64,000 nt of DNA, taken from Polaromonas sp. (lineage in GTDB: Bacteria; Pseudomonadota; Gammaproteobacteria; Burkholderiales; Burkholderiaceae_C). The stretch lies in the NCBI RefSeq assembly GCF_016185115.1, contig NZ_JACPOF010000029.1:62530-126529 (forward strand). The letters run 5' to 3'. The notes below the pieces were generated by a model. That model worked only from the letters and a program-made list of their open reading frames with translations, was not told the origin of the DNA and did not search any database. A program made the position numbers and the translations under genes. Of this stretch, positions 30,014 through 37,452 are shown in pieces (positions within the stretch are counted from its first letter, which is position 1; each line of letters opens with the position of its first letter).

Positions 30014-31009
30014 TCAGTCGATGGTGGCGCCGGTGCGCTTGACCATGTCGGCGTAGTACACGGTCTCGGTGCCAATCAGCCGGACCAGGGCGGCGGGCGT
30101 CTGGGCATCGGGCAGAAAACCGAAGCCGGCGAACTTCTCTATCACCTCAGGCTGCTTGAGCACATCACCCAGGCTTCGGTTGAGCGTGTTGACGACCGCG
30201 GATGGCGTGCCTTTGGGCGCCATCACGGCGACCCAGCTGCGCACCTGGATATCCTTCGGCCCACCAGCTTCCTGGAAGGTCGGTACGTCAGGCAGGACGG
30301 TAGAGCGCGCGCTGTCCGCCACGGCGATCAGGCGCAGCTTGCCGGCCTTGACCAGCGCCGAGGTGCTGGCCACGGAGCCCATGGCCCAGTCCACCTCGCC
30401 AGTCGATACCGCCAGATACAGCTGCGAGATCTCCTTGTAGGGAACATGCAGCATCTTTGTGCCGGTGACGGCTTCGACCTGCGCAGCGCCCAGATGCAAT
30501 GGCCCACCCACGGAGTTGGAGCCATAGGTGATCTTGCCGGGGTTGGCGCTTGCGGCGGCGATCAGGTCTTTCACAGTACGTATGGGGCTGTTGGCGCCCA
30601 CGGCGATGAAAAAAGAGGTGCGGTAAATGCCGCCCACCGGCACGAAGTCGGTCTTGGGGTTGTAGGGCAGGTTTTTGAAGAGTGCCGGGCTGATGGCCAG
30701 GTGGCCTACATCGGCCAGCAGCAGGTCGTAGCCGGTGGGAGCGGCCTGCTTGACGGCTCCCGCCGCCAGGAAACCATTTGCACCCGGGCGGGCATCCACC
30801 ACCACAGGCTGCTTCCACGCAGCACTCAGGCGCTCACCCACGATGCGGGCGACGACGTCGGGGCCGCTGCCAGCGGGGAAAGGCGAAATCAGGCGCACAG
30901 GCTGGGCCGGGAAGGACTGCGCCAGTGCAGCTGGCGATGTCGTGGCCGCCAAAAGGCCCGCCAATACCGCCGCGCATACCGCCACAGAAGCCAGGAATCG
31001 TTGCTTCAT
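30014..31009 (-). CDS. Bug-family (TctC-like) substrate-binding protein
   Basis: ATG 31009 preceded by GGAGA. Signal peptide ..ALAQSFPAQPVRLISPFPAGSGPD. The ORF-track extension to 31126 was rejected. Confidence 0.9.
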   Translation of the reverse strand: MKQRFLASVAVCAAVLAGLLAATTSPAALAQSFPAQPVRLISPFPAGSGPDVVARIVGERLSAAWKQPVVVDARPGANGFLAAGAVKQAAPTGYDLLLADVGHLAISPALFKNLPYNPKTDFVPVGGIYRTSFFIAVGANSPIRTVKDLIAAASANPGKITYGSNSVGGPLHLGAAQVEAVTGTKMLHVPYKEISQLYLAVSTGEVDWAMGSVASTSALVKAGKLRLIAVADSARSTVLPDVPTFQEAGGPKDIQVRSWVAVMAPKGTPSAVVNTLNRSLGDVLKQPEVIEKFAGFGFLPDAQTPAALVRLIGTETVYYADMVKRTGATID

Positions 31010-31192
31010 GCTTGTCTCCAGATTTTTATAAGAAAGGGCAGCACGGATGCTAGGGACACCGGCGTTGAGGCGACAGACCTCAAATATGACCAAAATATGC
31101 CTTTTAGGCATCACAAACCCTTGCAAAAGGTTGTTTTCATCTAAAAAGGTATGGGAAACCCTTAGAAGACAGGTTTATTGCCATCAATCACA

Positions 31193-31294
31193 CTTTTTGG
31201 CCCCAAAAAGGCATCAAAAGGCCTATTTTTAGCCTCGAATATGGCTATAGCCCTTTAAATACGGGCGTGAGCAGCTACTAAATACATAGCAAAA
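31193..31294 (+). repeat. tail-half copy of the AT-rich intergenic repeat family
   Basis: ..AAAAGGCCTATTTTTAGCC..GGCTATAGCCCTTTAAATACGGGCGTGAGCAGCTACTAAATACATAGCAAAAC aligns with the 3' halves of the copies at 44274, 54291 and 59915. Confidence 0.7.
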
Positions 31295-31301
31295 CTGGCG
31301 T

Positions 31302-31332
31302 AAAAAAGCCCACTCCTGTGCGGGAGCGGGCT
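31302..31332 (-). terminator. intrinsic terminator of the Bug gene ending at 31368
   Basis: The - strand reads AAGCCCGCTCCCGCACAGGAGTGGGCTTTTTTA, a GC-rich stem followed by a T-run. Confidence 0.6.
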
Positions 31333-31367
31333 TGTCGGCGCCAACAACGGGCGGATCAAGCGGCTTG

Positions 31368-33469: not shown

Positions 33470-34522
33470 ATGGCCAACCTGCAGACCACGATAGGCAGCA
33501 TCACCCTGAAGAACCCGGTGATCTGCGGATCGGGCGAACACACCATGAGCGCAGAAGGCATACGCGCGGCGATTGCCAGTGGTGCGGGCGCAGTCGTGGC
33601 CAAATCCACCAACGAATCTGCAGCGGCCAAATCACAGCTGGACAAAACCGACTACCGCCTGCTGGACGAGAACTGGCAGGCCGTGCCCTGGGACTTCAAT
33701 GTGCCGCGCGACGCCACTGTGTTCTGCAGGTCGGGCCTGATACAGCAGGACTTCGAACCATGGATGGCGCAACTGCTCGCCCTTGACAGGGAAGCCGCCG
33801 CTGCTGGCAGCTACGTCATACCCAGCCTGATATTGAGCGGCCTGGACCAGTGCGTGGCTTACGCACAGCAGATTGAAAAAATGGGTTTTCGCATTCTCGA
33901 AGTGAACATAGGCGCACCGCATGGCGATGAGGCCGCCAAGGGCGCCATCATTCTTGAGCGTGATGCCGGCCGCATCACCACCATCGTCAGTCGCCTGCGC
34001 GCCGCCACAAAACTCCCGCTGTGGATCAAGCTCACCGGCCAGAGCGAAGACCCCGCCGCCCTGGCGGTGGCGGCAAAAGACGCCGGCGCCGATGCCGTGG
34101 TGCTGATGGGCCGCTTCATGGGTTTCATGCCTGACCTCGAAACACAGGCACCCCTGCTCAACACATCGGCAGCGATAGGCGGCGGCTGGGCCCTGCCGCT
34201 CACGGCACGCTGCATTGCACTGGCACGCAAACGTGTGGGCCGCAGCTACCCGCTGCTGGCCACCAACGGCGCACGCAGCGGTCTTGATGTCGCACGCTTT
34301 TTGTTGTCAGGCGCAGCGGCTACAGAGATGGCTTCACTGGTACTGATGCGGGGTTATCGCGCGCTGACAGAAGCGATTGCTGAACTTGATGCCTACCTCG
34401 ATGGTTGCGGCAAGTCAGCTGCCGATATCACAGGCACTGCTGCAGACAGTCTGCAAACCTATGGCCAGCAGGCAGACAGGCCTGGCATCTGGCGCGACTT
34501 TGTGCCGCCCGTGAATGTGTAG
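33470..34522 (+). CDS. dihydroorotate dehydrogenase-family (class 1 DHOD / DPD-B-like) TIM-barrel flavoprotein
   Basis: LKNPVICGSG start, and EVNIGAPH, WIKLTG and NGARSG motifs of the DHOD/DHPD family. Confidence 0.7.
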   Translation: MANLQTTIGSITLKNPVICGSGEHTMSAEGIRAAIASGAGAVVAKSTNESAAAKSQLDKTDYRLLDENWQAVPWDFNVPRDATVFCRSGLIQQDFEPWMAQLLALDREAAAAGSYVIPSLILSGLDQCVAYAQQIEKMGFRILEVNIGAPHGDEAAKGAIILERDAGRITTIVSRLRAATKLPLWIKLTGQSEDPAALAVAAKDAGADAVVLMGRFMGFMPDLETQAPLLNTSAAIGGGWALPLTARCIALARKRVGRSYPLLATNGARSGLDVARFLLSGAAATEMASLVLMRGYRALTEAIAELDAYLDGCGKSAADITGTAADSLQTYGQQADRPGIWRDFVPPVNV

Positions 34523-34795
34523 GGTCTTCCCCATACTGGTCACGGTTGTCCCAGCACTTTCAAGAGCTAAAAAGACTTGCAGCCCAGTAGTGGCGGCCTT
34601 GTCTGAAGACATGCTCCTTCTGTGAACGCATTCCGGTCACTGGAAAACCCTCCCAAAGTACAGACAGGTTTTCGATATGCCCGGGCTATAGTGCAGGCAA
34701 TAACCGCAAAAACAGTTTGCGGGGTTTGACGGATTCTTTATGAACGTACAACCACGTACAAAAATATCGGCAAACCCGATACACATGCCGGTTCC

Positions 34796-34872
34796 AGGAG
34801 GATTTTCATGACCAGCTTATGTTGCAGTTGCCAGGTTAGGCCGTAGGTGTTGCGGCACACATTACGTTAGAC
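34796..34872 (+). promoter_or_regulatory. attI-like left junction: SD plus 12-codon mini-ORF overlapping four direct GTT-N4 repeats
   Basis: AGGAGG (34796-34801), 6 nt, then ATG 34808...TAG 34846 (MTSLCCSCQVRP). GTTGCAG at 34821, GTTAGGC at 34835, GTTGCGG at 34849 and GTTAGAC at 34866. The last is identical to the R' core of the middle attC. Confidence 0.35.
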
Positions 34873-34949
34873 CTCATGGAGAACAATCACACGCTGTAAC
34901 AGTGCCAGCGAAACTAGGTCATCCAAGATTAAGAACTGAGGGGTAGGAA

Positions 34950-35159
34950 ATGAGTCCAACAATAGCTCCACCGATACCAGAGAAATGCGAAAAATGCGCG
35001 CGTTGCGTTGAGGTAGCCATAACTAGTAACCCATTTGATTTCGATGCTCCGTCGTTCAACTCGGAATGCAACCTCGATGGTTGTCCGGTAAACGCGCGGA
35101 ATCAGCCAAACTCGGATGAACGGGTGAATGTCTATTTCGTGAATTGTGATGAGGCCTAA
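34950..35159 (+). CDS. cassette 1: small Cys-rich hypothetical protein (69 aa)
   Basis: ATG preceded by GAGGGG. Cys at positions 13, 16, 19, 40, 45 and 66. The stop TAA lies inside the degenerate inverse core GCCTAAT. An overlapping TTG-start ORF on the - strand is the alternative reading. Confidence 0.4.
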   Translation: MSPTIAPPIPEKCEKCARCVEVAITSNPFDFDAPSFNSECNLDGCPVNARNQPNSDERVNVYFVNCDEA

Positions 35160-35243
35160 TTTATCAATCGACAAGGACGCACAACAGCAGACTGTGGTTT
35201 TGCCGCAAGTGTTGGTTGTACGGTCATTTTTGCGTTAAACCGC
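35151..35243 (+). repeat. attC-like site 1 (degenerate): GCCTAAT ... GTTAAAC
   Basis: 87 bp from R'' to R', the same length as site 2. An ungapped alignment to site 2 gives 52/93 identities by hand count, with shared blocks TCGACA.GGA and GCCG...GTGTTG. Its own arm pairing is weak. Confidence 0.55.
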
Positions 35244-35244
35244 A

Positions 35245-35667
35245 ATGGCTATGGACCTTGCACTTTCTCAGGCCACTGCGAGTGCATTTCTGGAGGCATT
35301 TCGGCGCTGCGAGCCTGACGCCAATGACTCAAAGTACTTCATGGCATTCCCTGCATTGGTCTGCGCTGCCTTTTCTGCCGAGGTGGGGCTCAAGACAATT
35401 TTAAAAAGGGAGGGGAAAAGTGCGCATGGTCATGATCTTCTCTCTCTATTCATGCAGCTTTCAGACGAGAAAAAGATCGAAATCGCAGATGAAACCGGCA
35501 TTTCAATTGAAGACTTTGCAGCGCATCTAAACCACTCGAAAAAAGCGTTCTTGGAATGGCGCTATATCTATGAAGAGTCTGGCGAAAAAATGATTAGTCT
35601 TCTTTTCATTGGAAAATTCGCCGCAGCTGTCGAGGCGGCGGGCCTCAGAATGAAAAATGCGGTCTAA
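35245..35667 (+). CDS. cassette 2: HEPN-like domain protein (140 aa)
   Basis: All-helical-looking sequence with R55-x5-H61 (LKREGKSAHGHDLLSLF) and a downstream FLEWRYIYE, resembling HEPN signatures. The ATG starts 5 nt after the preceding GTTAAAC. The stop TAA lies inside GTCTAAC. Confidence 0.55.
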   Translation: MAMDLALSQATASAFLEAFRRCEPDANDSKYFMAFPALVCAAFSAEVGLKTILKREGKSAHGHDLLSLFMQLSDEKKIEIADETGISIEDFAAHLNHSKKAFLEWRYIYEESGEKMISLLFIGKFAAAVEAAGLRMKNAV

Positions 35668-35751
35668 CATGTTGCTCGACACGGAAACACAACTACACAC
35701 TCGTACTTCGCCGATCGTGTTGCGCTCCTGTCAGCCTCGATGTTAGACCGC
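35659..35751 (+). repeat. attC-like site 2: GTCTAAC ... GTTAGAC
   Basis: Perfect 12-bp terminal inverted repeat GCGGTCTAACAT / ATGTTAGACCGC. The arms continue to pair (GCT, GACA, GGA) with single bulged bases. 87 bp from R'' to R'. Confidence 0.75.
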
Positions 35752-35845
35752 ACATTCACCTCTGTGTCAACGCGAAGCTTGAAGACGACCAGCACCTGAA
35801 CTTGAATTTGAACTCAGCCCGTGCATACAAAATCGAATACCCGAC

Positions 35846-36490
35846 ATGACTCATACACAGACCGCGCGGCTTCTCACGTCCTTCATTCGGTATGCCGATG
35901 AAAAGGGTTCCATTGACAAACATAACGAGGAGTTCTTCGGAGAGATTGGCGCGCTGTACTCGAACGGGAATCAACTCAGCGAACATCTGTACGAATTGAG
36001 CGCGGCAGGCGTTGTGTACTATGAAGAAATTGGAGAAGACGGCTTCGCCCCGATCATCATGGCGGGCTGCACAAAGCAGACAGCAGCGCATCTTGCTAGT
36101 CTTCTCAAAGAGATCGATGCAGATGTAGAAGGTCTGCGACGGCGTATCAACGAAATACTGACTTTTGATCCCGATCGCCTGAAGTCAGAAATCAGCGTCG
36201 CAGAAGAGAAGCTTGGTGCTGCCCGCAGGGCCGCGGAGGAGAACGAGTTGCTCAGACCTCTTCTTCGGCAAATAACTGAGATAGAGAAGTATTTCCACGG
36301 CGTCTCCGCAGTGGCTGACAAATACGAAGATGTGTACAAAAACATCATCCGGCCGGTTCAACTTGAAGGAAAGTCAGGTGTCGAGGCTACCGTACGCTGG
36401 GCCATCATCAGTATCGTTGCATCGACAGCCATCTCAGTCGTGTTGGGAAATTGGAAGGAGCTTGCGCAGCTGTTTAGGAGCCTGATATGA
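35846..36490 (+). CDS. cassette 3: hypothetical protein, winged-helix-like N-terminus, coiled coil, C-terminal TM anchor (214 aa)
   Basis: Residues about 90-170 are heptad-like and charged. Residues about 184-202 (WAIISIVASTAISVVLGNW) are hydrophobic. No family recognised. No clear Shine-Dalgarno sequence. Confidence 0.65.
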   Translation: MTHTQTARLLTSFIRYADEKGSIDKHNEEFFGEIGALYSNGNQLSEHLYELSAAGVVYYEEIGEDGFAPIIMAGCTKQTAAHLASLLKEIDADVEGLRRRINEILTFDPDRLKSEISVAEEKLGAARRAAEENELLRPLLRQITEIEKYFHGVSAVADKYEDVYKNIIRPVQLEGKSGVEATVRWAIISIVASTAISVVLGNWKELAQLFRSLI

Positions 36491-36513
36491 GGGGAAAGGA
36501 TGAAAGTGCGACA

Positions 36514-36592
36514 GCGGTCTAACAGGTCGTTCGACGCGGACACGCAGCGGCGCAATGGCACTGCGCGCCGGGCAGTTCCAAGGTTAAGCCCC
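36514..36592 (+). repeat. attC-like site 3: GTCTAAC ... GTTAAGC
   Basis: The 5' arm GCGGTCTAACAGGTCGTTCGACGCGGACAC matches the site 2 5' arm at 28/35 positions. The 3' end is GTTAAGC. 73 bp. Arm pairing is weaker than in site 2. Confidence 0.5.
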
Positions 36593-36669
36593 CATTTGCC
36601 TTCCGAAGCGAATCATTTACCTCCCTTCCGGCTTCAGCACTGTGAAGCCTTACTACCAGACGGCGCAGC

Positions 36670-37452
36670 TCAGTTCGCAATCGTTTCCTGATAGGCCGCT
36701 TCAATCCGCGCAGCCGCATCCCGCAATATCGGCAAATAACGTCGTGTAGCCTCATCGAACTTGATGGCCGAATCTATCCAGATGATGTTGATGCAGCCCA
36801 GCACGTGGGCTCCATTCATGATGGGCACGGCGATGCTGGATGTTTTGGCCATGAACTCGCGCTGGCGCGTGCCGTAGCCGCGCCGCCTTGTGGCCGCCAG
36901 TGTGCGCCGAACGGCTTCAGGGTCCTGCATCTTGTCCTGGTCAGGCCCGGGCACCGAGCTGATACGTTCAAGAATGGCCTTGCGCTCCGGCAGCGGTGAG
37001 AAGGCCAGGTAAGTCCAGCCTATCGCTGTACTCAACATCGGCAGGTGCCGCCCCACCCACGAACGTTCTATGGAAAGCGGGCTGCGGAAATGGGTGGTTG
37101 AACGTATCACCATGCCATCGTCTTCATAGGTGGCGACATCTGTGGGCCAGACCACCTCATTGACCAGTTCACCCAGCACCACATCGGCGATTTGGGTGAT
37201 CCAGTCGTCATCCTTGTAACCACCGGACAGGCTTTTGACCTTCAGCGTGAGGCGGTAGGCATCGCGCAAACCGCTGCGCTGCAAAAAACCTTCTGTGCGC
37301 AGCGTCTCCAGCAGGCGGTGCACGGTCGGCCGCGGCAGGCCGGTGTGCGCAGCCACCTCGACCGTCGTTGCATGCTGCAGTGCATTCACGGCGCGCAACA
37401 CAGCGAGGCCGCGTTCCAGCCCGCGCACCGAGTGATAGGTGGATGTCGTCAT
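36670..37452 (-). CDS. IclR-family transcriptional regulator
   Basis: N-terminal wHTH (LERGLAVLRAVNALQHATTVEVAAHTGLPRPTVHRLLETL) and an IclR effector domain. Confidence 0.9.
   Translation of the reverse strand: MTTSTYHSVRGLERGLAVLRAVNALQHATTVEVAAHTGLPRPTVHRLLETLRTEGFLQRSGLRDAYRLTLKVKSLSGGYKDDDWITQIADVVLGELVNEVVWPTDVATYEDDGMVIRSTTHFRSPLSIERSWVGRHLPMLSTAIGWTYLAFSPLPERKAILERISSVPGPDQDKMQDPEAVRRTLAATRRRGYGTRQREFMAKTSSIAVPIMNGAHVLGCINIIWIDSAIKFDEATRRYLPILRDAAARIEAAYQETIAN

Follow-up and report, generated by a model that had tools for sequence, protein, structure and literature searches.

A probable relic of a sedentary chromosomal integron, with its attI site and three gene cassettes, in a Polaromonas-like bacterium

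Bacterial genomes commonly contain integrase-less arrays of integron gene cassettes, for most of which there is no accepted account of how they arose. The stretch of DNA analysed here (the window; 64,000 nucleotides of contig NZ_JACPOF010000029.1 from Polaromonas sp.) raises this question at a single locus. Between a DHO_dh-like gene and a convergent IclR gene lie three plus-strand open reading frames (ORF1 to ORF3), each followed by an imperfect palindrome (elements 1 to 3), which a preliminary description had read as an array of three cassettes in an AT-richer island. Are the palindromes attC recombination sites, and how would cassettes have come to stand where no integrase gene is found? 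We propose that the locus is very probably a degraded sedentary chromosomal integron of a Polaromonas-like member of the Comamonadaceae, one whose history is directly readable in that the integrase appears to have been lost and the docking site kept. The island itself is borne out by the profile of guanine-plus-cytosine (GC) content, which drops from 0.60-0.66 in the flanks to 0.44-0.53 within 34500-36450.

The palindromes have the anatomy of attC sites. All the coordinates previously given, those of the inverse-core and core heptamers among them, were correct on re-check. R'' and R' cores (RYYYAAC / GTTRRRY) are present in all three elements, the R'' of element 1 ending in T instead of C, and in each element a second helix, L''/L', is set apart from the R box by an unpaired spacer and has one extrahelical base on its R''-L'' arm (a G when read on the bottom strand); in element 3 this pairing (GTT(C)GAC/GGCAGT) takes in one mismatch and two G-T pairs. 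Element 2 does have a perfect terminal inverted repeat, but one of 13 bp (35658-70 / 35740-52) and not of 12 bp as had been claimed. The TAA stop codons of ORF1 and ORF2 lie within the inverse core, ORF3 stops 27 nt 5' of element 3, and the ATG of ORF2 (35245) is 4 nt past GTTAAAC. The 5'-arm motif YTAAY-N7-TCGAC occurs three times in the window against 0.09 expected, more often than by chance and each time at one of the three elements, so that the repeat is not scattered; a stricter pattern matches elements 2 and 3 only. The bottom strand of element 2 folds spontaneously better than shuffled sequences (z = -4.9), with two bulged G on the 3' arm. Element 1 aligns ungapped to five attCs of L018 and L016, two arrays found at the same junction in relatives (79% mean column identity over the six sequences), and its sequence places it in a lineage-homogeneous attC family of the kind found in sedentary chromosomal integrons.

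A covariance model trained on other arrays picked out the same three elements. This model (R1) was built from 14 attCs of L011, L004 and the relatives' arrays L015, L016 and L018, where L011 adjoins a degraded intI and L004 is a metagenome contig; the window, the element 1 family and the attC of the ORF2 orthologue were left out of the training. In the 14 sites the R and L boxes are paired in 84% of cells, compared with 69% in shuffles, and when the partners are shifted by between one and three columns the 84% falls to 15-46%. In the L-box helix 89% of cells are paired and eight of the nine pairs have compensatory changes, while R-box cells are 79% paired. Run over the window, R1 gave exactly three significant matches, all on the plus strand and with the ends that the preliminary description had set: attC3 (47.3 bits, E = 5.9e-9), attC2 (40.1 bits, E = 3e-7) and attC1 (19.5 bits, E = 0.022), the next match having E = 1.2. 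Elements 1 and 3 are recognised through their conserved R and L boxes. In L072, a complete integron outside the training set, the model found nine attCs on the downstream side of attI, and it found none in L017, a related locus with an empty site. From their sequence, we identify the three palindromes as attC sites.

The DNA to the left of the first cassette resembles the attI side of complete integrons. When metagenome contigs were scanned with an exact 34-nt attI-core pattern, TTATRCCGCAGGNTTYGCGGNNNNNATTNNGTTA, 59 loci were obtained (L056-L114). Two of these, L072 and L104, carry a full divergent integrase gene, which starts about 150 nt to the left of the crossover, the GTTA with which the pattern ends on the right. 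The integrase of L072 passes the NCBIfam integron-integrase models (TIGR02249, 436 bits against a cut-off of 265) and is about 61% identical to IntI1. Between intI and attI, the intergenic region of L072 matches window positions 34706-34872 over its whole length with 72.5% identity, and the leader of the window is 70-72% identical to the corresponding regions of L072 and L104. The aligned leaders share a 3' block ending ...ATTAC|GTTAG, and homology among the window, L015, L016, L018, L019 and L007 ends at GTTA. In contigs with identical leaders the bases right of GTTA vary, a single leader family showing at least 12 different junctions, and attCs follow the attI core on the same strand in 39 of the 59 contigs. 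Since the right side of GTTA is variable and attCs stand behind it, GTTA is a recombination crossover and the site an attI. Its repeats are spaced 50 and 31 nt from the crossover, compared with 51 and 32 nt in attI1, whose sequence was matched in at least 4897 plasmid records. The heptamer GTTAGGC at 34835-41, which matches the reverse complement of the R'' of element 1, was considered as the start of cassette 1 and rejected, because the alignment with relatives makes it part of the DR1 repeat of attI and puts the junction at 34866-72. Across the 59 contigs the leader has diverged into several families everywhere but in the attI core, which is exactly conserved.

Next to this leader, positions 34643-34730 are likely to be a decayed stub of intI of about 90 bp. 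The start region in the window, GTTTGCGGGGTTTGAC, aligns with the intI start GTTGCGGGGTTTCAT of L072 and L104, and a tblastn search with residues 24-41 of the L072 integrase (LHYSLSTEKTYLYWVRFF) matched LHYSPGISKTCLYFGRVF at 10 of 18 residues, with strand and position both as expected. The stub recurs in L015 and L018. The view that no intI gene or remnant is visible here thus has to be given up, as a putative 5' stub and a recognisable attI occupy 34643-34872. A complete integron has an intact intI beside attI, encoding a tyrosine recombinase with the insertion specific to IntI, and here there is the stub only: elsewhere in the window tblastn gave no match with IntI1, VchIntIA or the L072 integrase, no intI was detected within 6 kb of the locus in relatives, and nothing convincing as a further intI fragment was seen in the leader at 34523-34642. 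Because attI and the stub stand together at 34643-34872, the array would be a degraded integron and not an orphan cluster. Between the two lies a short segment (34743-34759) whose counterpart in the complete relatives we take, with low confidence, to be a LexA box.

The same junction in related genomes points to a variable site. The DHO_dh-like protein finds 29 loci, the closest of which (84-93% identical) belong to Polaromonas or to unclassified metagenome-assembled genomes (MAGs) of Burkholderiales; exact-protein look-ups of the DHO_dh-like and IclR neighbours returned the same sequence only (L013/L014) and offered nothing to compare. By blastn the window was compared with five of the relatives (L015-L019), whose flanks are 83-88% identical to its own. 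In L017, a Polaromonas MAG, the site is empty, with about 5 nt between the two stop codons. L015 keeps the window sequence to 34870, then has two other cassettes and rejoins at 36573; L016 has the same leader and about 3.5 kb of different cassettes; in L018 a long array follows the leader, part of which occurs a second time; and in L019 the last ~30 bp of the leader are fused to the end of the DHO_dh-like gene, followed by one cassette and an intact 131-aa glyoxalase-family gene. Not one cassette is common to the window and L015, L016, L018 or L019. The comparison of this junction that had been called for therefore found relatives that are empty or filled with other cassettes, not relatives with the identical three genes, an outcome that favours the integron reading. 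Wholly different cassettes at one site in related species bear on whether such arrays still exchange genes. Two of these loci have further peculiarities. The second leader copy of L018 (8540-8663), made up of the final ~124 bp with attI, sits within the cassette array and is joined to a cassette ORF in its 3' part, so that this one array has two attI sites. In L019 (7040-7080) the DR1-L-R part of attI stands in place of the last codons of the DHO_dh-like gene, apparently owing to a deletion at CCGC microhomology, and the protein ends differently because of this replacement.

Homologues elsewhere bear on whether the cassettes have moved as units. ORF2 has 51 homologues, and the closest, P0001 (95% identical), occurs in six short metagenome contigs (L004-L009) with differing neighbours. 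Between the window and L004, L007 and L008, the homology of cassette 2 starts at G|TTA(R)ACCGCA.ATGGCTATGG, spans the attC and ends at the R' core, so that cassette 2, as judged from these alignments, is a discrete mobile unit with limits at the G|TT cores. In L010-L012 a further homologue, P0039, is one of about seven plus-strand ORFs that lie downstream of an integrase remnant on the minus strand; the remnant is 45-49% identical to IntI sequences, and the attI and attCs of this array are directly readable. For cassettes 1 and 3, attC-flanked homologues in other genomes suggest that they too may be discrete units. An ORF3 homologue of Acidovorax radicis (L044) is directly followed by an attC of 62.6 bits, with more attCs on both sides, and in one of the loci of the three ORF1 homologues found (68-80% identical), L118, an attC overlaps the stop codon of the homologue. 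An ORF2 homologue can also stand by itself: at L001:7939-8429, on a 203-kb contig, P0016 lies alone between asmA-like and tex genes with a single attC (31 bits) directly upstream, and looks like a solitary cassette at a chromosomal site.

Beyond attC3 the island ends in the stump of a further unit (36584-36669), the 5' end of a glyoxalase/VOC-family gene. Its ATG is changed to ATT at 36615, and about 14 codons follow, to 36657, before a deletion junction beside the IclR stop codon. The 131-aa gene of L019 (7552-7947, PF00903) is the intact counterpart.

Taken as the remains of an integron, the locus would have the following history. The ancestral platform would have consisted of intI on the minus strand, an intI-attI intergenic region, attI and cassettes. 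An old deletion would have taken intI save for the ~90-bp stub, leaving attI with its crossover G|TTAGAC (34866/34867), behind which stand three cassettes, each one ORF with its attC, and then the glyoxalase-family stump. The integrase would have brought cassettes in by attI x attC recombination, with the bottom strand of attC folded, and each could leave by attC x attC recombination. With no integrase gene at the locus, movement today would depend on an IntI acting in trans and encoded either at another place in the genome or on a mobile element. The stub is shared by the window, L015 and L018 and the leader also by L016, so that the loss of intI looks ancestral.

Several results weigh against this reading. 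The bottom-strand fold looked for in all three elements was obtained for element 2 but not for elements 1 and 3, which fold no better than shuffled sequence (z near 0), so that for these two free folding gave no attC hairpin. Element 1 is also borderline for R1 (E = 0.022), which is our own model and not that of IntegronFinder and gives rough E-values. The support for the stub consists of the 10/18-residue match (E = 0.002-0.015, from small search spaces) and about 15 nt at the start codon. The attI of the window has three substitutions at positions conserved in the family and L015 is without DR1, and the site may therefore be non-functional. Finally, no sigma-70 consensus promoter was found in 34450-36750, so that expression of the cassettes is at most putative.

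Granted a degraded integron, it may be asked whether the platform is an inert fossil or a working exchange site served in trans. We consider the latter possible but the less probable of the two. The window, L015 and L018 share the same stub, and L016 the same leader, yet they have no cassette in common, and this combination of a shared stub with wholly different cassettes suggests, at the level of sequence comparison, turnover after the loss of intI. The attI core is exact in L016, L018 and dozens of integrase-less contigs whose leaders have otherwise diverged. Among the attI-core contigs with at least 500 bp upstream (n = 50), two have a full intI, two a fragment and 46 none, most of these 46 carrying arrays; the sample was picked by exact core match, which biases the apparent conservation. 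Against such a role stand the three substitutions in the attI of the window, the degenerate state of attC1 and attC3, and the divergence of the relatives, whose 83-88% identical flanks allow time enough for differential loss or for array replacement through homologous recombination. On these grounds a fossil, differential loss and replacement by homologous recombination are all possible as well. A more general proposal, that integrase-less platforms with a conserved attI are a common, maintained state in freshwater and groundwater Betaproteobacteria, with cassettes turned over by an integrase acting in trans, is speculative and somewhat less probable still. If true, it would give an origin and a working mode for a large share of unexplained CALINs (attC-site clusters without an integron-integrase), and the locus of the window and the 46 of 50 contigs without intI would be samples of this state. 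The 46 contigs may merit separate study.

It is far less probable that intI was never here and that the cassettes form an orphan cluster, inserted at a secondary non-attI site or split off from an intact integron. The window has no intI ORF, most CALINs have no recognisable intI pseudogene, and secondary-site insertion and rearrangement are both listed among CALIN origins (PMC4889954). However, such an origin does not account for a leader homologous to the complete intI-attI region of L072, including the start-codon region of intI, for a peptide matching IntI residues 24-41 just beyond it, or for the same leader kept at this locus in three other genomes. Least probable is that the palindromes are repetitive extragenic palindromic (REP)-like elements or terminators behind the three ORFs of an acquired island, unrelated to integron recombination: the poor folding of elements 1 and 3, one terminator-like stem inside element 1 and the lack of any Rfam match in a scan of 34000-37200 at E up to 10 (a chance microRNA match apart) would fit it, but we rejected it on the R''/L''/L'/R' boxes with their extra base in L'', the match to a model made from attCs of integrase-linked arrays, the movement of cassette 2 as a core-bounded unit and the adjacent attI and stub, the elements moreover numbering just three in 64 kb, each at the end of an ORF and all on the same strand.

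The degraded integron has close parallels among known systems. In the IntegronFinder study (Cury et al., 2016, PMC4889954), attCs were clustered with a 4-kb threshold and intI pseudogenes were sought within 10 kb of CALINs; only C-terminal pseudogenes were searched for, and they were present near 15 of 279 CALINs, while attI is unknown for most integrons. Our locus resembles these CALINs in having at least two attCs (here three), no intI ORF nearby, a small array and cassettes of unknown function, and differs in that its origin can be read from the attI and the putative 5' stub of intI that are still present. The preliminary description as a CALIN-type array of three cassettes is upheld by the attC model, the G|TT limits, the variable junction and the absence of an intI ORF from the window, and the locus is a CALIN by the IntegronFinder definition, one arisen via integrase loss and an ordinary case of a known element type. 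With sedentary chromosomal integrons whose integrases are inactivated, such as those of Xanthomonas (bioRxiv 10.1101/2025.06.18.660453), it shares a fixed chromosomal site across related species, lineage-homogeneous attCs (the element 1 family), strain-specific cassettes and a decayed intI; the array of the window is much smaller and its intI is reduced to about 90 bp instead of a frameshifted full-length pseudogene. The attI shares with L072, L104 and class 1 attI1 two direct repeats, an inverse L site and a GTTAG core, at spacings within 1 nt of those of attI1, whereas, compared with L072 and L104, the window is without an integrase gene, the LexA-box position is degenerate and attI is substituted.

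In metagenomes, where attI is normally unannotated, the attI-core pattern offers a simple handle for finding this integron family. The intI-less contigs that it retrieved adjoin unrelated genes (arsH, cysE, an RND pump, a CoA-transferase and vapBC). In one leader family, that of L112 (2622-3674, minus strand, stored orientation reversed), L068, L082, L095 and L113, a 350-aa phage-type tyrosine integrase occupies the position of intI; it starts about 90 bp from the attI core and matches PF00589 below the cut-off. Phage lysis genes lie beyond it and an array of at least five attCs lies on the opposite side. This recombinase was considered as the missing integron integrase and rejected, being of phage type, without similarity to IntI and adjacent to phage lysis genes; the arrangement could be a prophage abutting or replacing intI.

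The features of the locus are collected in Table 1.

Table 1. Features between the DHO_dh-like and IclR genes, with positions in the window
Feature	Position	Strand	Remarks
Whole AT-richer insert	34523..36669		Between stop of DHO_dh-like gene (34522) and stop of convergent IclR gene (36670); GC profile; missing in L017
Probable decayed intI 5' stub	34643..34730	-	Start-codon region 34715-34730, ATG changed to GTC; LHYSPGISKTCLYFGRVF at 34696-34643
LexA-box position (presumed)	34743..34759		CTGTATAAAATTACAG in L072, degenerate AACGTACAACCACGTAC in window; by-eye alignment of window, L072 and L104
attI	34816..34872	+	DR2-like CTTATGTTGCAG 34816-27; DR1-like GTTAGGCCGTAGG 34835-47; L-like GCGGCACAC 34852-60; R core GTTAGAC 34866-72; crossover G34866 / T34867
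Cassette 1 (putative)	34867..35234	+	From attI crossover to G of attC1 core; homology with relatives ends 34870-34878
ORF1	34950..35159	+	69 aa, Cys-rich; ORF list
attC1	35154..35240	+	R'' GCCTAAT, L'' AAT(C)GAC, L' GTCATT, R' GTTAAAC; degenerate copy; 87 bp
Cassette 2	35235..35742	+	Same cassette in contigs L004-L009; homology from G|TTA to attC R' core
ORF2	35245..35667	+	140 aa, predicted HEPN-fold protein; homologues and AlphaFold model
attC2	35662..35748	+	R'' GTCTAAC, L'' GCT(C)GAC, L' GTCAGC, R' GTTAGAC; 87 bp
Cassette 3 (putative)	35743..36583	+	Limits are attC2 and attC3 cores; homology to L015 picks up again at 36573
ORF3	35846..36490	+	214 aa; predicted N-terminal winged helix, coiled coil, C-terminal hydrophobic helix
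attC3	36517..36589	+	R'' GTCTAAC, L'' GTT(C)GAC, L' GGCAGT, R' GTTAAGC; 73 bp
Stump of further unit	36584..36669	+	5' end of glyoxalase/VOC-family gene; alignment with L015 and L019

A second GC dip (0.46-0.51) occurs in the window at 30900-31350, upstream of a TctC/Bug-family gene, with no attC match there.

As to the cargo, Pfam, NCBIfam and PADLOC gave nothing above threshold for the three ORFs; ORF1 has a Fer4 match below threshold, and the PADLOC search returned one weak match, for ORF3 (E = 0.032). The AlphaFold model of ORF2 (mean predicted local distance difference test, pLDDT, 86.6) has the HEPN fold, a four-helix up-and-down bundle. Its best PDB matches, 1ufb, 2hsb, 1wol, 4nqf and 1o3u, are all HEPN proteins, with template-modelling (TM) scores of 0.5-0.66 and weak E-values (5e-3 or worse); some homologues are named HEPN by their sources and one carries PF05168, marked weak. 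Residues E46, K50, H63, R106 and E110 are invariant in the family, and Y107 nearly so (one F). The canonical Rx4-6H motif, catalytic in HEPN ribonucleases, is missing from this family, in which R106 is followed by YIYE without a histidine, and the R of 'REGKSAH' in the ORF2 of the window is not conserved. The toxin-antitoxin or anti-phage cargo suggested earlier thus finds no backing in ORF2, which is without Rx4-6H, or in the defence-system models, none of which matches the three ORFs, and any toxin or defence role would be only a guess.

ORF3 has 127 homologues, which, save for two with JGI labels, are without a name or called hypothetical. Its model (pLDDT 80) has at the N-terminus a domain similar to the winged helices of PadR/MarR, accompanied by a long coiled coil and a C-terminal hydrophobic helix, which would make it a membrane-tailed protein. 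Found widely in Beta- and Gammaproteobacteria (L044, L047-L055), the family is a candidate defence or addiction gene of the stand-alone type, and its members stand repeatedly beside genes of defence type: an OLD nuclease with UvrD helicase, AAA_15/AAA_21 ATPases, HamA, or Dam with HARE-HTH.

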